IMG/VR virus record: IMGVR_UViG_3300025138_000281
Coordinates: 1-26,940 of that record
Length of the DNA stretch: 26,940 nt
Origin: a virus
Taxonomy: Duplodnaviria; Caudoviricetes
Direction: 5' to 3' (one strand)
The notes below the pieces were generated by a model. That model was not told where the DNA came from. It worked only from the letters and a program-made list of their open reading frames with translations, and made no database searches. The translations under genes and the position numbers were made by a program. How positions within the stretch are numbered: position 1 is the first letter of the stretch; each line of letters begins with the position of its first letter. Shown here in pieces: positions 16,624-26,940 of the stretch.

Positions 16624-17193
16624 ATGACAGATATACTATCAATGATGGAAGCCGACTTTGAAGAGAACGTCGCATCTTCCATGGAAAAGGGCAACCTTGG
16701 CGGCATAGCCATACTAGCCCGCAAAATACGAACAGCCCAGCAAGAAGTCGAAGAGATTGAGAAAGACCTCAAGTCTCGCAAGAAAGACTTGCTGAAGCTG
16801 ACAGATGAAGAACTACCTTCTGCTATGCAGGAACTAGGTATTTCCTCGTTTGCTCTGGATGACGGTTCAACAGTAGACGTAAAGCCTACATATGGAGCCA
16901 GCATTTTAGTTGCCAACAGGCTTCATGCCTACGCTTGGTTGCGTGACAATGGCTACGACGACATTATTAAAAACATCGTTTCATGCGAGTTTGGTCGTGG
17001 CGAAGACGATCAAGCCAGCGCTTTTAAAGCGTTTGCTTCTAAAGAAGGGTTTCCGGCGGATCAGAACGAAAGCATCCATTCGGGCACACTAAAAGCTTTT
17101 GTACGGGAACGTGTGGAAGCTGGGGACGACTTTCCAATGGAACTTTTCGGGGCCTATATCGGTCAACGCGCTATAATCAAAGGAGCAAAATAA
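16624..17193 (+). CDS. Conserved phage replication-module protein (N-terminal coiled coil), function unknown
   Basis: 189 aa. LPSAMQELG, WLRDNGYDDIIKN and IHSGTLKAFVRE motifs resemble a phage family usually found beside SSB/helicase genes. TAATG coupling downstream. Confidence 0.7.
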   Translation: MTDILSMMEADFEENVASSMEKGNLGGIAILARKIRTAQQEVEEIEKDLKSRKKDLLKLTDEELPSAMQELGISSFALDDGSTVDVKPTYGASILVANRLHAYAWLRDNGYDDIIKNIVSCEFGRGEDDQASAFKAFASKEGFPADQNESIHSGTLKAFVRERVEAGDDFPMELFGAYIGQRAIIKGAK

Positions 17194-17974
17194 TGGCGAA
17201 TGCAGTAACAAAAAATAAAGCAGCGGATGTAGCCGTGTTTGACACATCCATGTTCGAAGCAGATGCGGGCGCGGGAAACCAAAACGTAGGGTCAGAAGAC
17301 CTCGCGCTGCCGTTTCTCAAGCTGTTGAGCGGGTTAGATTCCTTGCTGGACACACACGAAACCGCGCGTAAAGGTGACATATACAATACCGTCACAGGCA
17401 CTGTAGTGAGCGGTAAGGATGGGTTAAGCGTAATTCCTTGTGCCTATCAGCGCGTGTTCATTCAGTGGGTTCCAAGGGGCGCTGGTACAGGCGCACCGAT
17501 GAACGTCTACAAGCCGAATGACCCCGCTATGCCAAAGACTGAGCGTAGCAAAGAAGATAATAAAACTACGTTGTCGGCGGTGACGGTGACTACATCGAAG
17601 AAACTCACCAGCACTACGTTATGATCGTCAACGAAGACGGTTCAACTGAAACGGCTCTGATTGCAATGAAGTCCACGCAGCTAAAGAAAAGCCGCAAATG
17701 GAACAGCATGATACAGTCGGTAACGATGCAGGGTAAGAACGGTCCGTTCACACCACCCCGCTTCTCTCACGTTTACCGCATCAAAGCGGAATCCGAGGAG
17801 AACTCTAAAGGTAGCTGGCACGGTTGGGAAATGTCCCGAGAAAACCCTGTGCAAGACGCATCCGTATATGCCCGAGCAAAAGCTTTCTCAGAAAGTGTGC
17901 TTACTGGCGACGTGGTTGTAAAACACCAAAACGAAGATGACAAAGGCGAAGGCGCTGACGACATTCCGTTTTAA
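17193..17974 (+). CDS. Single-stranded DNA-binding-like protein, split by a -1 frameshift at ~17562-17565
   Basis: ORFs 17193-17624 and 17621-17974 join into one protein (...RSKEDNK/NYVVGGDGDYIEETHQHYVMIV...) ending in the acidic SSB-type tail DDIPF. GGAG RBS before 17193. Confidence 0.7.
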
Positions 17975-17983
17975 TGTTTACTA

Positions 17984-18005
17984 GGGGGCTGCTTCGGTAG
18001 TCCCC
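17984..18005 (+). other. Stable RNA hairpin with cUUCGg tetraloop, between the SSB and primase genes
   Basis: GGGGGCTGC-TTCG-GTAGTCCCC forms a 9-bp stem with two G-U pairs. No U-tract follows. Confidence 0.75.
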
Positions 18006-18022
18006 ACCGCAAGGACAAAACC

Positions 18023-19561
18023 ATGACAGTTAAAAAGTTCTCGTCTATCTTTGATGGACTGAAAGAAGCTTACGGCACATACCGGATAGAGAAAACTCAG
18101 TCCAACGGGAAGAACACAGGCAAAGCAGGCATCGTTCGCGAACCGCGCAACGCGGGTCTGTGGGAGGGCCACCTGTCGGGTAAGGGAAACTCTATCGGCA
18201 TTATCCCAATAAACGCAGATAACATGTGCAAGTGGGGCTGTGTAGATATTGACCAGTACCCGCTGGATCATAAACTACTCTTAGAAAAGATCAGGAAGCT
18301 AAAACTTCCGCTCGTTGTCTGTCGCTCTAAGTCTGGCGGAGCGCACTGCTTCCTATTCTGTAAGGATTGGGTTGAGGCAAAAGACATGCAAAGGTCACTC
18401 AAAAGTATAGCGGCCGCGCTGGGCTACGGTGAAAGCGAGATATTCCCAAAGCAGATTAAACTGCACCTAGATCGTGGAGATGTGGGTAACTTTCTAAATC
18501 TTCCGTACTACAACGCAGAAGACGGTCTGCGCTACGGCATCCTAGATGACGGCACTTCGGCCACTCTAAAAGAATTCTTTGAACTCTACGAGACACACGT
18601 TCAAACGCCAGAGCAAATCCAGAAGCTCCAGATAACAGAAGCAACCGAAACAACGCCCGTAAGAGACGGCCCGCCGTGCCTACAGCACTTAGTCAAAGAG
18701 AAAATCTCTGAGGGTGGGCGCAATAACGGTCTGTTTAATATAGGCGTGTACCTTCGCAAGGCGTTCCCAGATAGCTGGGAAACAGAAATCCTGACCTACA
18801 ACATGCAATACTTTGAGCCGCCGCTCCCACTGTCAGAAGTTACAGTGGTTGCAAAGCAGCTAGAGCGCAAAGATTATGCCTACCGCTGTAGTGATGCGCC
18901 GATAAACGCGCACTGTAACAAGGAACTTTGCCAAACCCGTAAGTTTGGTATTGGGAGCGCCATACAGAACGCTACAGTAGCCAATCTGCGTAAGTACAAT
19001 TCAACGCCCCCCGTCTGGTTTATGGACGTTAACGGCGAGCCTCTGGAGCTAGATACAGACGCCCTAATGAGCCAGCCGATGTTTCAGAAAGCATGTATGG
19101 AGCAACTCAACTTCATGCCGCGCAGCGTGGCAAAGCAACAGTGGGAAGGTCGGATCAGCGCACTGCTTACAGAGATGCGCGAAAACGAAAGCGCCATCAT
19201 GGAAGTGGCAGTAGACGCCAGCGTTAGCGGCCAGTTTTACGACTACTTAGAAGAATTTTGTCGTTTCCTACAGCAAGCGCAGGACAAAGAAGAAATCTTG
19301 CTCCGCCGCCCTTGGACCGACGAAGACGCAATGGTAACCTTCTTTCGCCTAAAAGACTTCGAAAACTTTCTAAAGAAGAACAAATTCTTTGAGTACAAGT
19401 CACACCGAATTGCCCAGCGCCTGCGTGACATAAACGGCGATAGCACCGTTCTGAAGATCAAAGGCCGCGCAGTGCGGGTCTGGCAGATTCCAGCGTTTGA
19501 GTCTGGCGACATAGATATAACAACTCCAGACTTCACACCAAAACAGGAGAGCCCGTTTTGA
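18023..19561 (+). CDS. Archaeo-eukaryotic-type (AEP) DNA primase with PriCT-like domain
   Basis: VDID (motif I), SKSGGAH (motif II), GNFLNLPY (motif III), and a PPCL...EGGRNNGLF PriCT-like segment. AAGGA RBS. Confidence 0.8.
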   Translation: MTVKKFSSIFDGLKEAYGTYRIEKTQSNGKNTGKAGIVREPRNAGLWEGHLSGKGNSIGIIPINADNMCKWGCVDIDQYPLDHKLLLEKIRKLKLPLVVCRSKSGGAHCFLFCKDWVEAKDMQRSLKSIAAALGYGESEIFPKQIKLHLDRGDVGNFLNLPYYNAEDGLRYGILDDGTSATLKEFFELYETHVQTPEQIQKLQITEATETTPVRDGPPCLQHLVKEKISEGGRNNGLFNIGVYLRKAFPDSWETEILTYNMQYFEPPLPLSEVTVVAKQLERKDYAYRCSDAPINAHCNKELCQTRKFGIGSAIQNATVANLRKYNSTPPVWFMDVNGEPLELDTDALMSQPMFQKACMEQLNFMPRSVAKQQWEGRISALLTEMRENESAIMEVAVDASVSGQFYDYLEEFCRFLQQAQDKEEILLRRPWTDEDAMVTFFRLKDFENFLKKNKFFEYKSHRIAQRLRDINGDSTVLKIKGRAVRVWQIPAFESGDIDITTPDFTPKQESPF

Positions 19562-19755
19562 CAACCCCAGTATTAAAAAAACTTAGAAACGTAGAGATCG
19601 TCCGGATGATCGACGAACAGCACATGACAAAAACCGCCGTCGCTAAATGGTTTAAAATAAGCAAACAGCGCGTGTGGCAGATTTACGAACGGGAGAAAGA
19701 AAATGTTCAGGATATTCGGCCCACCGGGGACGGGGAAGACAACCAGACTTCTTAA
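19558..19755 (+). CDS. Small helix-turn-helix DNA-binding protein
   Basis: RNVEI...MTKTAVAKWFKISKQRVWQI, a sigma region-4-like HTH. AGGAGA RBS and a TTG start overlapping the primase stop. Confidence 0.75.
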   Translation: MTTPVLKKLRNVEIVRMIDEQHMTKTAVAKWFKISKQRVWQIYEREKENVQDIRPTGDGEDNQTS

Positions 19756-21223
19756 TATGGTTGACGACGCGCTCCAAAAGGGTGTCGCCCCGATGAACAT
19801 AGCTTTCCTAGCTTTTACACGCAAAGCCGCCAACGAAGCAAAAGAACGCGCGGCTAAACGCTTTAACCTAGACCCCAAGAAAGACCTGTTCTATTTCCGG
19901 ACACTGCACAGCCTAGCTTTGACCTGTTCCGACATACGCACCGAACAGGTAATGCAGGACGAAAACTATAGGGAACTCTCCAGAGAGATGGGGGTGCAGC
20001 TAAACGTAGCTCGTACCAATAACTTTGATGACGATCTGCCTGAGATGACCAAAGCAACTGACCCTATCTTGGGCCTGATTAACCTTGCCCGAATGCGCAA
20101 AGTGCCGCTGCGCCAACAGTACAACGAAACCCCAATCGAAATAGAGTGGAACATTGTAACCTATGTGGACAAATGCCTGACCAGCTACAAAGAAAACATG
20201 GAGATGTACGACTTCACAGATATGCTGGAGAACTTTCCAAAAGAAGGCTACACAAGCTGCCCGCACTTTGACCTATGCTTTGTAGATGAAGCGCAAGACC
20301 TTTCACCCATACAATGGGACATAGCGCACATCCTAGACGAACGATCAAAAAGAATGTACTGCGCAGGCGATGATGACCAAGCCATATACCGCTGGGCAGG
20401 GGCAGATGTAGACCACTTTATCGGGCTGGACGGCGGATCAGAAACCCTGTCACAATCCTACCGCGTTCCATTCCTAGTACACCAACTGGCAGAACGGGTC
20501 GTGTCCCGTATCGGTAAGCGCTTCCTTAAAGAATACAAACCAAAGGTCGATGAATACGGTTCGATACGCCGTATCTTCAGCGTCGAAGAGATAGACATGT
20601 CAGAAGGATCGTGGCTCATCCTCGCCCAAGCCGGATACCAGCTACAGCCCGTAGCCGCCGAACTCCGGTCCTCCGGATACCTGTTCATCAATCGCGGCCA
20701 TCGCTCCATATCCGAAAAGATATCCGACGCCGTTAACGGTTGGGAACAACTGCGCAAAGGCAAAGAAATCACAGGAGCCGTAGCGCGTAAAATATACAGC
20801 TACATGTCAACTAAAGACCGCGTGAAAAGAGGCTTTAAAACCCTGACCGCCGTCGAAGATACAGACTTCGTAACCCTCGAAACACTGACCGCGGACCACG
20901 GACTTTTAGCAACACAAGACATGGTATGGCATATTGCCATGGACCGCGTACCAGAAAGCGACAGAGCCTATATCATTGCAATGCTTCGACGAGGCGAGCG
21001 CTTTAACGGCGAGCCACGCATAACCGTGTCAACGATACACGGGGCAAAGGGCGGAGAGGCGGACAACGTAGTTCTATTCACAGACCTTTCCCCCGCCGCC
21101 GAAGAACAAATGAATGTTAACCCAGACGACACGCACCGCGTATTCTATGTGGGCGTAACTCGCGCTAAACAAAGCCTGTTTATCGTGGAACCTCAAGACT
21201 TCACAAGGAGTTATGATCTATGA
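19703..21223 (+). CDS. UvrD/Rep-like superfamily 1 DNA helicase
   Basis: GPPGTGKT, AFTRKAA, VDEAQD, GDDDQAIY, QSYR, STIHGAKGGE, YVGVTRA. Confidence 0.93.
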   Translation: MFRIFGPPGTGKTTRLLNMVDDALQKGVAPMNIAFLAFTRKAANEAKERAAKRFNLDPKKDLFYFRTLHSLALTCSDIRTEQVMQDENYRELSREMGVQLNVARTNNFDDDLPEMTKATDPILGLINLARMRKVPLRQQYNETPIEIEWNIVTYVDKCLTSYKENMEMYDFTDMLENFPKEGYTSCPHFDLCFVDEAQDLSPIQWDIAHILDERSKRMYCAGDDDQAIYRWAGADVDHFIGLDGGSETLSQSYRVPFLVHQLAERVVSRIGKRFLKEYKPKVDEYGSIRRIFSVEEIDMSEGSWLILAQAGYQLQPVAAELRSSGYLFINRGHRSISEKISDAVNGWEQLRKGKEITGAVARKIYSYMSTKDRVKRGFKTLTAVEDTDFVTLETLTADHGLLATQDMVWHIAMDRVPESDRAYIIAMLRRGERFNGEPRITVSTIHGAKGGEADNVVLFTDLSPAAEEQMNVNPDDTHRVFYVGVTRAKQSLFIVEPQDFTRSYDL

Positions 21224-21552
21224 AACAACAAGAACGTTTTGAATTTATAGAGGCCGAGATTGACCGAGCCTATGTTCACGCTGATGACGAATGGAAACAA
21301 GAGTATTACCAGAACGCCGCTAAATATCTAGCTGAACACAAGATTGTTGAAGGCGGAAAGATTTGTGCCTTTTGCAGATCACAAGGGATGGCTGATCCGC
21401 ACCACCATAACGTTTGGGGTGCAATGATGACATCTCTAAAAAAACTAGGGTGGGTCGAGAAGATAGGAATGGTCCGCCCAACTACACGCCACACGCATAT
21501 TAACGAAGTATGCCAATGGGAAAGCAAACTATTTAAGGGAGAGAAGACGTGA
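21220..21552 (+). CDS. Hypothetical phage protein
   Basis: 110 aa, AAGGAG RBS, ATGA overlap. PHHHNVWGAMM motif. Confidence 0.7.
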   Translation: MKQQERFEFIEAEIDRAYVHADDEWKQEYYQNAAKYLAEHKIVEGGKICAFCRSQGMADPHHHNVWGAMMTSLKKLGWVEKIGMVRPTTRHTHINEVCQWESKLFKGEKT

Positions 21553-21704
21553 ATTGTTGGCATTGTAAGACAGAACTTATTTGGGGAGGAGATCACGATT
21601 GTGAGGATGACGAAGAGCATTCTATGGTCACAAACCTCTCATGCCCTAAATGCGAGAGCTTTGTATTAGTTTATTATCCAAGGGAGAAAGAAGATGAAAC
21701 GTGA
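21549..21704 (+). CDS. Small Zn-ribbon protein (not in ORF track)
   Basis: GTG start overlapping the upstream TGA, GGGAGAG RBS. 51 aa MNCWHCKTELIWGGDHD...SCPKCESF with two CxxC pairs. Confidence 0.8.
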   Translation: MNCWHCKTELIWGGDHDCEDDEEHSMVTNLSCPKCESFVLVYYPREKEDET

Positions 21705-22023
21705 TGAAATACTGGATTTGTCAAAAGAACTGATAAACGGCCAACGCGCCAAAGACTACGGCGATGCGTTCGACAACCACAACAGAATAGCGGAGGGTTG
21801 GAACATAATTACAAACAGCGCACTGGTAAGCCACGGCGCACTGACCGCGCAGCACGTTGTATTAATGATGGATTGGGTGAAGACAGCACGGCTACTTAAC
21901 ACTCTGGATCACGATGACTCTTGGATAGATAAAGTTGGTTACAGCGCTCTTGGTGGCGAGTTCTCACAAAAGAACGAAATGATCCAAGAGATAGAAGCAG
22001 TAAAGAGAAAGTTACAAAAATGA
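21694..22023 (+). CDS. DUF6378-like phage protein
   Basis: R.KDYGD...N..RIA..W, MM..VK.AR and DSWID..GY.ALG pattern. GGGAG RBS. Confidence 0.75.
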   Translation: MKRDEILDLSKELINGQRAKDYGDAFDNHNRIAEGWNIITNSALVSHGALTAQHVVLMMDWVKTARLLNTLDHDDSWIDKVGYSALGGEFSQKNEMIQEIEAVKRKLQK

Positions 22024-23912
22024 AGCTTAAAATAGCCAGCCCTTCGCTAAAGTCAGAGTGGGTTCCGCCCGCAGAACTTCCAGACCTAACAGGCGCAAGC
22101 ACAATCGCTATCGACGTAGAAACCCGTGACCCTAACATCAAAACAAGCGGTCCCGGCTGGGCTGTAGGTGACGGTGAAGTGGTCGGCTATGCAGTGGCTA
22201 CAGCAGATTGGGCAGGCTATATTCCTACAAGACACCGTGGTGGCGGAAACCTAGACGAAAAGATAGTCAATCGCTGGCTCAAGAAGGTCTTTGACTGCCC
22301 CGCCGATAAAGTAATGCACAATGCGCAATATGACGTAGGTTGGATCAAACGTATGGGGTTTGAGATAAACGGGCGGGTAATCGACACAATGGTCGTCGCT
22401 TCGCTGCTAGATGAGAATAAGTTTTCCTACGCCCTTAACTCTTTGGCGTTTGAGTATCTGGGCCTCGCAAAGAACGAAAGCCTACTTAGAGAAGCAGCCA
22501 AAGAGTTTGGCTTTGATCCCAAGGCTGACATGTGGAAAATGCCCGCCATGTACGTCGGACCCTACGCCCAGACAGATGCAGAAGTTACCCTGCAACTCTG
22601 GGACTACCTAAAAGTAGAGATCGGCAAGCAAAACCTCTGGAATATCGTCAACCTAGAGCTAGATTTGCTCCCCTGCTTGGTCAACATGACTTGGAGAGGC
22701 GTCCGCGTTGATATGGACAAAACTGAAAGAACGCGGGACGCGATCCTAAAACGCGAGAAAACTGTGCTAAAAGAGATCAAAAGCTTAGTTGGCCGTGACA
22801 TAGAGATTTGGGCGGCGAATTCTATAGCAGAAGCCTTCGATGACCTAGCAATACCTTACCCAAAGACAGAAAAAGGTGCGCCGTCGTTTAAAAAGCAGTT
22901 TTTAGCAGATCACAGCGAGAAATTACCACAACTGATCGTCCAAGCTCGCAGTTTAAACAAAACCAGCGGAACTTTTATCAATAATATCCTAAAATTCTGC
23001 CACGGCGACGGTCGAGTGCATTCGCACATCAATCAGATCAGAGGAGACGACGGGGGCACAGTTTCTGGTAGATTTTCTATGAATAACCCTAACTTACAAC
23101 AAATCCCGGCCCGCGATCCGGAGATCGGGCCACTTATACGGTCGTTGTTCCTGCCAGAAGAGGGGGAACAGTGGGCGGCAATAGATTACTCGCAACAAGA
23201 ACCGCGCATCTTGGTTCATTACGCCCATGTATATGGAAAGAGCCGCGGGATTGCTTTGCGAGGTGTTGAGGAGTTTGTAACAAGCTACAGAGAAAACCCA
23301 GACATGGATTTTCACACAATGGTTGCGGAAATGGCAGATATCCCTCGGAAACAAGCAAAAACCATCAATCTGGGCATGATGTACGGCATGGGGGTCGCTA
23401 AACTGGCAGATCAGCTAGATATCGACACAAGCGAAGCTAAAGGCTTGGTTAAACAGTACCATGACCGCGTACCGTTCGTAAAAGCACTGATGAATGGCGT
23501 TACAGAAAGACTGAACAGCAAGGCCAGCGGCGGCGCGATAAGCTCAATCTTAGGTCGTAAGTGTCGGTTTAATCTTTGGGAGCCAGACTCTTTTGAGATG
23601 ACCAAAGCTATGCCGTACCAAGAAGCAGTGCTTGAATATGGTGACACATGCCGTCTCAAGCGGGCGTTTACTTACAAAGCGTTGAACAGACTTATCCAAG
23701 CGTCCGCCGCGGACATGACCAAGAAAGCCATGGTTGATTTGTACAAAGAAGGGTATCTTCCAATGCTTCAAGTGCATGACGAACTGTGCATGTCAGTAAA
23801 AACCAGAGAAGAGGCAGAAGCTATTGCCAAGATCATGGTAAATGCAGTACCATTAGAAATCCCTAGCAAGTGTGACGTTGAAGTAGGTCCAAGCTGGGGT
23901 GAAGCTAAATAA
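22020..23912 (+). CDS. polA: Family A DNA polymerase with 3'-5' exonuclease domain
   Basis: Exo I IDVET, Exo II HNAQYD, Exo III YAQTD. Motif A DYSQQEPR, motif B KTINLGMMYG, motif C QVHDEL. Confidence 0.95.
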   Translation: MKLKIASPSLKSEWVPPAELPDLTGASTIAIDVETRDPNIKTSGPGWAVGDGEVVGYAVATADWAGYIPTRHRGGGNLDEKIVNRWLKKVFDCPADKVMHNAQYDVGWIKRMGFEINGRVIDTMVVASLLDENKFSYALNSLAFEYLGLAKNESLLREAAKEFGFDPKADMWKMPAMYVGPYAQTDAEVTLQLWDYLKVEIGKQNLWNIVNLELDLLPCLVNMTWRGVRVDMDKTERTRDAILKREKTVLKEIKSLVGRDIEIWAANSIAEAFDDLAIPYPKTEKGAPSFKKQFLADHSEKLPQLIVQARSLNKTSGTFINNILKFCHGDGRVHSHINQIRGDDGGTVSGRFSMNNPNLQQIPARDPEIGPLIRSLFLPEEGEQWAAIDYSQQEPRILVHYAHVYGKSRGIALRGVEEFVTSYRENPDMDFHTMVAEMADIPRKQAKTINLGMMYGMGVAKLADQLDIDTSEAKGLVKQYHDRVPFVKALMNGVTERLNSKASGGAISSILGRKCRFNLWEPDSFEMTKAMPYQEAVLEYGDTCRLKRAFTYKALNRLIQASAADMTKKAMVDLYKEGYLPMLQVHDELCMSVKTREEAEAIAKIMVNAVPLEIPSKCDVEVGPSWGEAK

Positions 23913-23953
23913 GCTTCGCGGTTTACTGCTCATCCACCGCCTACTTCTAACTG

Positions 23954-24004
23954 CCCTTTTGTCTGGTCAGGTTTCGCACTGCAACGACAAAAGGGTTTTT
24001 TCTT
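23954..24004 (+). terminator. Rho-independent terminator after polA (large, partly paired loop)
   Basis: CCCTTTTGTC ... GACAAAAGGG followed by TTTTTTCTT. Confidence 0.75.
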
Positions 24005-24037
24005 GCAGGTTCCCATAAACTCCTATATGATCCTATT
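24003..24037 (+). promoter_or_regulatory. Sigma70-like promoter with three tandem TCCYATW boxes
   Basis: TTGCAG (24003), 17 bp spacer, TATGAT (24026). TCCCATA 24011, TCCTATA 24021 and TCCTATT 24031 recur at a 10-bp period. Confidence 0.7.
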
Positions 24038-24060
24038 GAAAACGACAAAAGGTAAACCCA

Positions 24061-24237
24061 ATGGATACTACAAAATGGAAAAGCGTCCTTGTGCCCATTG
24101 AGGTGTACAAAGAGATTAAAGAACACTCTGTTGTTAACGGTAGAACAATAAGTGGACAACTTAGGGTCATGTTTGATGTTTATTCGAAAAGTAAGGATAA
24201 AACACTTGACGCATCCCATAAAATCGCTTACAAATAG
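24061..24237 (+). CDS. Ribbon-helix-helix (Arc/CopG-like) DNA-binding protein (not in ORF track)
   Basis: 58 aa MDTTKWKSVLVPIEVYKEIKEHSVVNGRTISGQLRVMF...: an alternating beta strand, a helix, a G-R-T-I-S turn, then a second helix. AAGG RBS and its own promoter. Confidence 0.75.
   Translation: MDTTKWKSVLVPIEVYKEIKEHSVVNGRTISGQLRVMFDVYSKSKDKTLDASHKIAYK
24206..24234 (+). promoter_or_regulatory. Sigma70-like promoter with TCCCATA box, for the candidate sRNA
   Basis: TTGACG (24206), 17 bp spacer containing TCCCATA (24214), TACAAA (24229). Confidence 0.55.
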
Positions 24238-24240
24238 CGC

Positions 24241-24307
24241 AGACATTCTCCAAATGTTTCAAAAAATGTTAAAGCCCTCAGTTTATTGTCCAAACTGAGG
24301 GTTTTTT
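24241..24307 (+). ncRNA. Candidate small regulatory RNA with anti-Shine-Dalgarno loop
   Basis: Lies between a promoter and a terminator, with no RBS-led ORF. 5' hairpin GACATT-CTCCA-AATGTT. Offers 17 bp of complementarity to 24362-24379. Confidence 0.5.
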
Positions 24308-24310
24308 CTT
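24274..24310 (+). terminator. Rho-independent terminator
   Basis: GCCCTCAGTTT-attgtcc-AAACTGAGGGT followed by a T-tract. Confidence 0.85.
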
Positions 24311-24325
24311 GTGTAAACTATTTAC

Positions 24326-24354
24326 TTGACATTCTCCCATACCATATTTATTCT
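24326..24354 (+). promoter_or_regulatory. Sigma70-like promoter for the early/accessory operon, with TCCCATA box
   Basis: TTGACA (24326), 17 bp spacer containing TCCCATA (24335), TATTCT (24349). Confidence 0.75.
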
Positions 24355-24380
24355 GTATTCATTGAAACAGGAGAAATGTA

Positions 24381-24710
24381 ATGGAAACTTATACACTAGA
24401 TATTAAGGGCGGGTTGCCAATTAAGCTAACCGCAGAACATACGCTAGGAAACTTAGAAGGTATTGACAAGACAATGCGTAAACCCCATTGGGGACCGCAC
24501 TTGTTTCGATTAAAAAGCGGGGAAATGGTTTTGTATATCGGCCTCATGCATAACTGTGGTCAACAAAAGAATTTCTTTGGTAAACTATATATGAACGTTG
24601 AAGATCTAAGCTCTGAAAATATTCTACAAATATTTGGCAATACATATTCTTCACATGCAATGAATATTATTAAAGCACTTGGTCTGCCAACTGTAGTGGA
24701 GATTTCATAA
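24381..24710 (+). CDS. Hypothetical protein
   Basis: 109 aa, AGGAGA RBS, first gene after the promoter. Confidence 0.75.
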   Translation: METYTLDIKGGLPIKLTAEHTLGNLEGIDKTMRKPHWGPHLFRLKSGEMVLYIGLMHNCGQQKNFFGKLYMNVEDLSSENILQIFGNTYSSHAMNIIKALGLPTVVEIS

Positions 24711-24973
24711 TGCCTATGACAGCAAAAATCAAACTACGGGACGTTGATAACTTAGTTATATCGTCCACGTCTATCACAGCGGACCATTACGAAGACGGTC
24801 CCGATCCCGACGAATTTCTTCATAACGCTTGGAAAATGGCCGATCAAATGGCAAACCACCTATCTTGCGCGGACGAGTGGCGCTTAACCCTAACATTCGA
24901 CTTAGATTTGCGGGAAACCATGGAAGATGTAATGGCAAGGCAACCTTGCCGTTGCAATGAGTGTGCGCCATGA
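24710..24973 (+). CDS. Hypothetical protein with C-terminal CxCxxC
   Basis: 87 aa, GGAG RBS, TAATG coupling. Confidence 0.7.
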   Translation: MPMTAKIKLRDVDNLVISSTSITADHYEDGPDPDEFLHNAWKMADQMANHLSCADEWRLTLTFDLDLRETMEDVMARQPCRCNECAP

Positions 24974-25281
24974 TGCTTGATAGGGACATGGTAAAGCGGG
25001 TTCTTGGCGGGCAAAACGGTAAGTTTGCAGGCGTAAAAGTCTTAACGAAAGGCGGTAACGAACGATATGTTTTGGGCCGCGTAGACGGCACATCTTATAA
25101 CTCAGGATATATTTGTTGTTTTTGGAACAACAGGCGCAAGCGTTTTGATTTAGGGCGCGTAATAGCCATGATGTCTGAAAACGGTCACACCTTTGTTTCG
25201 GGTCAACATTTTAGCCACGAAAAGTGGTTACAAGTAAACAAGCTCATGGGCTATAATTATCTTATTAAGGAGGCCGCGTGA
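24970..25281 (+). CDS. Hypothetical protein
   Basis: Probable start is the ATG at 24970 (ATGA overlap). Ends KEAA over the next gene's AAGGAGG RBS. Confidence 0.65.
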   Translation: MMLDRDMVKRVLGGQNGKFAGVKVLTKGGNERYVLGRVDGTSYNSGYICCFWNNRRKRFDLGRVIAMMSENGHTFVSGQHFSHEKWLQVNKLMGYNYLIKEAA

Positions 25282-25382
25282 TGAACCTCACTGACTTCGC
25301 CGCGCTGATCGGTTTCGGATGTGGAATTATCGTGGGCGGAGCAATCTGCTTTTTTACTTTAACTTTTTTATGGATATGCTGA
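25281..25382 (+). CDS. Small single-pass membrane peptide (not in ORF track)
   Basis: AAGGAGG RBS at 25267. MNLTDFAALIGFGCGIIVGGAICFFTLTFLWIC, 33 aa. An alternative GTG start lies at 25278. Confidence 0.65.
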   Translation: MNLTDFAALIGFGCGIIVGGAICFFTLTFLWIC

Positions 25383-25384
25383 AA

Positions 25385-25453
25385 ATGAGTAGTCAAGATA
25401 TGGATCGTCTGTTGGACGAAGTGTTTGCAAAAGTGTTCGGGAGTAACTGGTAA
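25385..25453 (+). CDS. Very small peptide (22 aa)
   Basis: MSSQDMDRLLDEVFAKVFGSNW. Fills the gap and is coupled by TAATG to the next ORF. Confidence 0.5.
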   Translation: MSSQDMDRLLDEVFAKVFGSNW

Positions 25454-25626
25454 TGGAAGAACTACAGCTAGACCATGAGCCTTCAATTAATCATTGGGCA
25501 AAACTAATAGCTGATGATGATATAGCTACGGGTTATCACACAAGTTGGAGCCACGCATATGAATGTGCTTGGGTAGGCTTGGAAACAGAATACAACTACA
25601 GCTACGAATATAGAGAGGGTTGGTAA
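25453..25626 (+). CDS. Small acidic/aromatic hypothetical protein (57 aa, not in ORF track)
   Basis: GGGAG RBS, TAATG overlaps at both ends. MEELQLDHEPSINHWAKLIADDD... Confidence 0.65.
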   Translation: MEELQLDHEPSINHWAKLIADDDIATGYHTSWSHAYECAWVGLETEYNYSYEYREGW

Positions 25627-25862
25627 TGGCTAAGTGGAAAGAAATCCCGCTGCGTAAACAAAAGTTCGATAACTTCGCCGCACTCGCCGCACTCCAAGAA
25701 ACTCGGCAAAAAGAATGTAGCCAATGTAGCGGTGAAGGTAAGGTCGAAACCGACGTACCGCGGTCCGCGAACTTCGGACGGGACATAGGCGAGTTGTATG
25801 TCGAATGGCTGGCCTGCGAAGAGTGCAACGGGTCAGGAAAAATTAACTTGGAAGATGAGTGA
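25626..25862 (+). CDS. Small protein with DnaJ-type CxxCxGxG zinc-finger motifs
   Basis: CSQCSGEG and CEECNGSG. GAGAGGG RBS, ATG at 25626. Confidence 0.75.
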   Translation: MAKWKEIPLRKQKFDNFAALAALQETRQKECSQCSGEGKVETDVPRSANFGRDIGELYVEWLACEECNGSGKINLEDE

Positions 25863-26758
25863 TGGGTAACGTTGTTGAGTATGCAAAACAAGTAACGCAA
25901 AATTACTCCAATCATTGGAGTGTAAAAAAACCGTGGGCATTTGAAAAGGAAGAGCTAAAAGTAACTCCTAAAGAAATTGCCAACAAAATGGTGCAACATT
26001 GTCAGTTCTTTGATGTATCAGAAATTTATAAACACGCTTTTGAAATAACAGGGAAAATTTATCCAGACAAAAATGTTCCGCCCAGCACAGACGCAATTCT
26101 TCCAGCGCCCTACACGGCTTTGTATATAGATTACAATTCTTTTGACGACGTTGAAGGAAAAGAAGAAATAATTGTGTATTTGTCTCCAACTAATCAAACG
26201 CTAGGGTCTAAAAACTTTTCTATTATAACAATAAAAAACCCCGAAACAGAAGCGCCTCGTTTACTTGGAGAAATTAAAACAAAGTTGGTTAATGGGAAAG
26301 AAGTAAAATCGTTTTGTCTAGCTTCAACAGCGCTTGCAGAAAGTAAGAAAAACCCACGTTTAGCCTACGCAGACAGCCTCTGGATTAGACAAGTATCAAC
26401 TTTGTTGCATTTGATTAACAAACCAAGAAAAGTAAAAATCAATCCGCTGGCTCAAACCAGACAAGCCAAACGCCAAATAGCCAGAGGCATGGGTTTTGCT
26501 GTTGACGCTTGGCACAGAGTGTCGTGGGACATAGACAAGCCCGTAGTTGCAAAAGAACCGTATGATAAGAAATTTCATAACATGCCTCTGCATTTTAACA
26601 GGGGTCATTGGAAGAAAGCTTTAAAAAATCACCCCAAGTCAGTTCAGAGAGACGCGGAAAACGGGTGGTGGACTTGGGTAGAAGGATACTGGGCGGGCCA
26701 CCCTGCCTTTGGAATTAAAAAAACATATCATGTTCCAAAAAGAAGCACTAAACTTTAA
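25859..26758 (+). CDS. Phage protein of unknown function with basic C-terminal H-x-x-RGH-W...W...YW-x-G motif
   Basis: 299 aa. PLHFNRGHWKK...WTWVEGYWAGHP. Confidence 0.7.
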   Translation: MMGNVVEYAKQVTQNYSNHWSVKKPWAFEKEELKVTPKEIANKMVQHCQFFDVSEIYKHAFEITGKIYPDKNVPPSTDAILPAPYTALYIDYNSFDDVEGKEEIIVYLSPTNQTLGSKNFSIITIKNPETEAPRLLGEIKTKLVNGKEVKSFCLASTALAESKKNPRLAYADSLWIRQVSTLLHLINKPRKVKINPLAQTRQAKRQIARGMGFAVDAWHRVSWDIDKPVVAKEPYDKKFHNMPLHFNRGHWKKALKNHPKSVQRDAENGWWTWVEGYWAGHPAFGIKKTYHVPKRSTKL

Positions 26759-26779
26759 AAACACAGGAGGTGAAAAACC

Positions 26780-26940
26780 ATGGACGACGTAGAAAAGATG
26801 ATAAACAAAATTTTAGAAAGTTGTCCTAAAGAAATGTCCGCACCAACAATGTCTGCAATCATAGCAAACATCATCAACCTATATAACTTCTCGCACCTCT
26901 GGCCGCTCCTAGTCGCGCAAACAACTACAATGCTCGAAAT
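26780..26940 (+). CDS. Hypothetical protein, 3'-truncated by the window
   Basis: Perfect AGGAGGTGA RBS at 26765. MDDVEKMINKILESCPKE... stays open to the end of the window. Confidence 0.7.
   Translation, partial: MDDVEKMINKILESCPKEMSAPTMSAIIANIINLYNFSHLWPLLVAQTTTMLE

Follow-up and report, generated by a model that had tools for sequence, protein, structure and literature searches.

The window, that is, the whole 26,940-nt stretch of viral DNA analysed here, encodes an SNF2 helicase, an AEP primase, a UvrD-like helicase and a DNA polymerase A (22020..23912, + strand), as assigned by Pfam/PHROG. Because this polymerase is closest to those of DSL-LC04 (56% identity) and of 023Pt_psg01, HTVC023P and HTVC027P (49-52%), it marks the phage, by sequence, as a member of the HTVC023P-type group of marine phages, which is widespread and abundant. 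(A Pam3 gp34-like gene at 17193-17974 occupies two frames in the window and is a single 260-aa ORF in G001; since, in addition, a contig from RNA run X1 has one extra base at 17561 within this gene, the two-frame arrangement is probably an assembly error.)

Beyond the polymerase gene, and likewise on the + strand, the following features occur in order: a predicted promoter-like site, P1 (24003..24031), kept in clade A; a 58-aa ribbon-helix-helix (RHH)-like gene (24061..24237), to which P1 belongs; a second predicted promoter-like site, P2 (24206..24234), conserved across clades; a candidate small RNA (sRNA) of about 69 nt between its predicted ends (24240..24308), whose seed region (24241..24262) is a 5' hairpin with a CUCCA loop; an intrinsic terminator-like hairpin (24271..24310); a third promoter-like site, P3 (24326..24354), conserved in relatives and belonging to the adjacent operon; the leader, Shine-Dalgarno (SD) sequence and start codon of gene 24381 (24362..24383); and that gene itself, a 109-aa ORF (24381..24710) that is the first behind the leader and for which no Pfam, PHROG or Atlas assignment was obtained. 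P2, the candidate sRNA and the terminator are together termed here the unit.

The RHH label is based on sequence matches and on the secondary structure of a model: the protein has a weak Pfam match to RHH_5 (E 0.023), its matches to Arc, Mnt and AvtR are non-significant (E 0.5-0.9), and its modeled structure consists of an extended N-terminus followed by two helices (pLDDT 80). It has 265 homologs, PF07878 being found in many among the 120 homologs listed, and is about 53-90% identical across lineages, with a nearly invariant N-terminal strand. (Matches in metagenome-assembled genomes (MAGs) span four unrelated groups, and three of the matches look like mis-binned phage contigs; one homolog, L389:6001-6228, lies on a MAG contig of 337 kb from Burkholderiales and has no phage genes beside it.) The RHH-like ORF runs through P2, so that its last 11 codons are at the same time the sRNA promoter (window 24206-24237); this C-terminal extension is present in some clades only and may have arisen as a side effect of keeping the promoter conserved. 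The heptamer TCCCATA lies within the spacers of P1, P2 and P3 (window 24011, 24214 and 24335), and TCCCATA or TCGCATA is found again, in either orientation, in promoter spacers of different clades, with inverted copies in clade J promoters. From its sequence distribution this motif is a candidate RHH operator; with less assurance, the RHH-like protein itself is a candidate regulator of the promoters that contain it.

A preliminary description of this DNA had proposed that an anti-RBS small RNA is encoded here on the same strand as its targets, within a segment of about 67 nt that lacks an RBS-led ORF and that is flanked by a promoter (24206-24234) and a strong terminator. The sequence supports this proposal. 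The ~69-nt segment defined here was found, on inspection of sequence and ORFs, to contain no SD-led ORF; its folding energy is -21.3 kcal/mol (z = -5.55), a stability that none of 200 shuffles reached, and its predicted structure consists of two hairpins. In the 5' hairpin, nucleotides 24241-24247 pair with 24253-24259 and display CUCCA in the loop, just as had been described; the 5' arm and loop form the main seed, and the 3' arm provides the second helix of the duplex with the target. The terminator is the strongest among 17 found in 17000-26940. The promoter assignment held up less completely: P2 is conserved across clades, which makes the case for it as a promoter, but its -10 element is non-consensus, lacking the last T, and for this reason the consensus promoter scanner missed it. 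(The best scanner match was P3, at 10/12, which was the only one called among the sites at 24003, 24206 and 24326.) Thus, in sequence, the unit has the attributes expected of a trans-acting sRNA: a promoter, a terminator, no ORF and a short seed with multiple targets. Rfam yielded no match at threshold to the candidate sRNA in the window or in 10 related loci.

The terminator loop region (window 24281-24297) contains a 15-nt sequence that in the L228 clade serves as the main seed. The clade-A version of this loop is a complement of the primase RBS (window 18011-18022) over 6-7 nt, and one correlated change distinguishes the window lineage from other clade-A phages; the predicted binding is weak (-2.4 kcal/mol).

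Cofolding of the candidate sRNA with the leader of gene 24381 reproduces the 8 + 9 bp pairing that had been proposed: 9 bp with one bulge in the target and 8 bp across a 3-nt bulge in the sRNA, to which two further pairs, extending into the AUG, are added. When ranked by net binding, in which the folding of both sRNA and target is counted, this start region (-10.7 kcal/mol) is first among the 27 start regions of the window, which include one gene entered under two starts. The predicted leader alone binds at -14.7 kcal/mol, compared with a mean of -6.0 for flank shuffles that kept the SD core and start codon; none of 500 such shuffles did as well. By raw duplex energy, which ignores accessibility, the site falls outside the window's best 6, raw RNAduplex scanning being noisy as a target ranking. 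The RBS of the HTH gene (19541..19550, + strand), previously suggested as a second target, does contain the shared 10-mer, but its predicted net binding is only -0.7 to -1.1 kcal/mol, and it was rejected as a target.

Relatives place other ORFs after a leader of the 24381 type, so that a fixed leader is combined with an exchangeable first ORF; one contig from RNA run X4 omits ORF 24381 yet retains its leader. The region 24381-26758 of the window consists of hypervariable gene slots, in which relatives have different ORFs after the same leader, and X4 contigs skip window ORFs 24381, 25453 and 25859. Within clade A, 24 variants of the adjacent leader were tallied (3 loci were unparsed): helix 1 reaches 7 bp in 17 of these and helix 2 attains at least 5 bp in only 16.

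Five scans with RHH queries yielded 284 loci, many of them redundant, with the RHH gene parsed in 282. The promoter pattern follows the RHH gene in 126 of 283 sequences (window included), and a terminator was detected in 123. A scan with the clade-A seed pattern returned 67 viral stretches, 55 of them immediately behind an RHH gene; no promoter-terminator context was seen on inspection of the remaining 12. Among 15 clade-A sequences, two-sided changes occur in 7 of 19 consensus pairs, all within the terminator stem, which thus shows compensatory changes, and the 5' hairpin is nearly invariant. This hairpin is absent from some seed types, and clade-B RNAs (L059-L079, L283) possess an additional 5' hairpin with a second pyrimidine-rich loop. 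For broader comparisons, 63 representatives were drawn from 204 loci (each with at least 1.9 kb downstream), ten long records and the window; using a list of promoter patterns that was extended by hand after a first pass over these representatives, the unit was found in 59 and not in the other 4. In lineages without a unit behind the RHH gene, it lies 0.6-2.1 kb downstream. More tentatively, a terminator-adjacent segment of HTVC023P matches 4 of 33 start regions over 10-15 nt (it could alternatively be a start region on the other strand) and a 9-nt match to 2 of 37 start regions occurs in DSL-LC04; no clear unit was seen in positions 1-26000 of HTVC027P. The RHH gene is represented in contigs from RNA runs X1 and X2 and the whole unit in X3, as are other regions; these three runs consist of short assembled contigs that are scattered across the genome and show neither ends nor strand.

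The complementarity between seeds and start regions was evaluated statistically in several ways. In seven long records and the window, 21 of 126 start regions located between the RHH gene and terL pair over at least 9 nt with the RNA of the same genome, versus 2 of 248 start regions elsewhere, one of these two being a spurious ORF antisense to the unit (P = 5e-9, a value that overstates independence inasmuch as the loci are related; genes in the ten long records fetched were called by a simple script, with some starts surely wrong). Across the 59 representatives that have a unit, antisense pairing over at least 9 nt occurs at 68 of 557 start regions and sense matching at 2 of 557; SD-preserving shuffles of the same regions gave a mean of 2.8 and a maximum of 8 (200 shuffles), and only 27 of 6578 non-start windows pair with the seed. 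Seeds match start regions of their own locus in 64 of 532 cases versus 265 of 21245 for other seed classes (57 representatives), and an SD core trinucleotide lies within 52 of the 64 own-locus matches. The seed matches only about 12% of downstream start regions; at least one target match was found in 25 of 30 long loci and none in 5. Judged by these comparisons, the complementarity is a specific property of those start regions that lie between the unit and terL.

Seeds fall into about eight lineage-specific types, mostly without cross-matching between them (A and B seeds do cross-react). The seed is ACAUUCUCCAA in clade A, GUUCUCCAA in clade B and ACCUCAUAAAA in clade C, the corresponding target motifs being TTGGAGAATGT, TTGGAGAAC and TTTTATGAGGT; in L386, as judged by eye, two start regions match the seed of that locus over 7-9 nt. 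Homologous target genes swap their SD motif together with the seed: for homologs of four target genes, in 15 of 26 rows no other class matched as well as the own seed, where the misses include A/B ties and homologs that have lost the site, and where the best-other-class values are possibly inflated by one wrong HTVC023P guide (the HTVC023P rows being void). A tree of the polymerases includes 52 representatives, those with sufficient sequence; in it, classes A, B and C each form a single supported group, class J, which is common to 26 representatives, corresponds to one change with weak support, and class E is split; because the seed classes group in this way, the number of independent seed changes is estimated at about 6-7. 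The correspondence also had predictive value. In G005, G009 and G010 no unit follows the RHH gene; even so, genes of the kind that are targeted elsewhere share AACTACGGGAG, and from this shared RBS motif a complementary unit was predicted, which was then found in all three, 1.1-1.7 kb downstream, as a promoter-like site, TCCCGTAGT and a terminator. Conservation and covariation, whose absence would have counted against the preliminary description, were thus both found, and in about eight lineages a change in the seed is accompanied by a change in the target motif. These patterns point to a real, conserved family of phage sRNAs with a co-evolving set of RBS targets and with the putative function considered below.

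L342, a longer contig of the window's virus (99.98% identical over an overlap of 5025 nt), extends about 7 kb further and reveals additional sites. Among its 19 downstream start regions, 3 contain 12-nt perfect complements to the seed; these bind at -11.0 to -13.7 kcal/mol, are better matched than the adjacent leader and lie 7-9 kb downstream of the unit. Hence the adjacent leader, previously presented as the target, keeps its first rank within the window but is one of several. One of the three sites precedes a homolog of a 376-aa protein that, by language-model features, resembles DUF932 clusters, and for which there was no Pfam hit. For two of these target leaders a hairpin is predicted whose loop contains or adjoins the SD, a counterpart of the sRNA hairpin, so that loop-loop pairing with the sRNA is conceivable from the folding models. 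Because main-seed matches of 6-10 nt occur at primase start regions (G003, G004, G006, G007 and G008) and at SNF2 helicase start regions (G002 and G007), the sequences suggest weaker targets outside the early region, at replication genes.

The timing of the target genes can be gauged from HTVC027P, which is described as a lytic phage and whose gp34-38, just before terL, are classed as Early and gp21 as Middle, the early genes having no known function (PMC12753301 and its Table S3). The match of gp21 to the RHH profile is weak (probability 62.5%), and gp35 shows no homology to the 376-aa main target; the target genes here are therefore likely early by position and synteny with HTVC027P only. 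No tyrosine integrase was found in any of five near-complete relatives.

Among known systems the closest parallel is c4 of phages P1 and P7, an RNA that shares the coding strand of its target, whose loops pair around the RBS and block translation, and which differs together with its target between related phages; it has three stem-loops, is cut by RNase P from a precursor and, in a temperate phage, regulates the icd-ant operon that it heads (PMC12197685, PMC5320573 and PMC8198154). The predicted RNA of the unit is likewise on the target strand, complementary to the RBS and covarying with it between phages. Unlike c4, however, it is predicted to have a promoter and a terminator of its own, its targets are several and lie apart from one another across about 10 kb, its predicted fold has two hairpins instead of three stem-loops, and it occurs in genomes without tyrosine integrase; the layout suggests a primary transcript. 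Moreover, Rfam C4 matched neither the window (E <= 5) nor 10 related loci (E <= 2), and no antirepressor family was found by Pfam/PHROG among the window ORFs downstream of the unit. In short, the proposed mode of action of the unit is that of P1 c4, from which it is nonetheless distinct. The P4 CI RNA, also a same-strand small RNA that pairs with a leader and silences an operon, is processed from the very leader that it controls and causes premature termination; in contrast, between the unit and its target leader lie a terminator and a further promoter-like site, and there is no Rfam match in the window or the 10 related loci. Other short phage RNAs, namely sar of P22 and OOP of lambda, run from promoter to terminator and are antisense to one target (PMC12197685). 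The unit resembles these in its extent, but is trans-encoded, with several targets that are all on its own strand at separate places. The sar RNA sits near genes for the RHH repressors Arc and Mnt. Among alphaproteobacterial RNAs, MmgR/suhB (RF00519) and the cuckoo RNAs have a pyrimidine-rich anti-SD seed before a terminator; their seed is constant and acts on host genes, whereas that of the unit varies by lineage, and RF00519 gave no hit on the unit in the window or in 10 related loci. (A weak suhB hit of 31.8 bits, against a cut-off of 41, and E 0.011 does occur upstream of the RHH gene, at L096:3597-3663; it is a C-rich anti-SD stretch before the polymerase terminator, with equivalent DNA in G005, G009 and G010, and is possibly, on sequence grounds, a second small RNA.) No published description of the candidate sRNA was found in literature that took in few of the subscription journals and that excluded the 38 uncharacterised phage sRNAs in the supplement of PMC12197685, and sRNA terms had 0 matches in PMC12753301 and PMC9599517; the family is apparently undescribed.

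The explanation favored here, with a probability of roughly two in three, is that a trans-acting anti-RBS sRNA of about 69 nt caps or shuts off a set of early genes as it accumulates. The unit would be transcribed from P2 to the terminator as a discrete RNA, the seed of which would pair in trans with the extended SD motif of several likely early genes. Pairing of an sRNA over the SD represses translation; here it would block 30S loading on all target leaders at once, and the accumulating RNA would cap or shut off early host-takeover genes, which is its most likely purpose. The neighbouring RHH-like protein might, on weaker grounds, add transcriptional control through TCCCATA in P1, P2 and P3. 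The preliminary description had allowed for action either in trans or within read-through transcripts; the former is favored because better sites lie 7-9 kb downstream.

The main alternative purpose, compatible with this explanation and unlikely though not negligibly so, is lineage-specific superinfection exclusion: RNA already made in an infected or carrier cell would act on an incoming phage with a matching seed type and silence its early genes. The existence of about eight seed types that mostly fail to cross-match, while the RHH protein stays about 53-90% identical, fits this idea, as does the manner in which c4 underlies the heteroimmunity of P1 and P7 (PMC12197685 and PMC5320573). Against it stand the absence of tyrosine integrase from the near-complete relatives, the lytic description of HTVC027P, and the fact that seed type follows the polymerase tree, with type J shared so widely that the turnover is slower than immunity types suggest. 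Far less probable is that pairing occurs solely in cis, switching the P3 operon within read-through transcripts: seed and 24381 leader are about 120 nt apart, and helix 2 exhibits a C-G to G-C swap between the window and L043/L044, but a strong terminator and a separate promoter intervene, the predicted fold of the read-through RNA lacks seed-leader pairing, and the best sites are kilobases away, many of them behind their own terminator and promoter-like site. A DNA-level origin, where the motif is a protein site or part of a recombining promoter-leader cassette and the inverted copy has no RNA function, could account for leaders that are repeated while the ORFs behind them are exchanged, and for the presence of GACATTCTCC in the window's P3 promoter as well; it is rendered highly improbable by the strongly antisense orientation of the unit copy (68 matches versus 2), by the location of that copy between a promoter-like site and a terminator, where it tracks the motif of each lineage, by variation of the motif in the face of a nearly invariant RHH N-terminal strand, and by the loss of the P3 copy in most relatives. 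Finally, host mRNAs as the main targets of a general anti-SD translation shut-off, with phage sites secondary, would be in keeping with the SD core trinucleotides in most own-locus matches, which host genes likewise use, but the complementarity reaches into flanks that are particular to each lineage and occur in the early region of the phage itself, and start regions of structural genes seldom show it, making this very doubtful.

Regulation by a trans-acting anti-RBS sRNA would bear upon early-gene turn-off in lytic phages without their own RNA polymerase, which is poorly known. An sRNA seed that co-evolves with several RBSs at once can seldom be recognised from sequence; in this case such co-evolution is seen in about eight lineages and predicted a missing unit, and matched seed-leader pairs could serve as orthogonal translational switches. 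A further, rather speculative possibility, to be regarded as improbable, is that each lineage carries an early-gene RBS barcode together with a matching guide RNA, which would both time the phage's own early programme and silence co-infecting phages having the same barcode. If true, this would amount to an RNA-only, immunity-type system in non-integrating phages.
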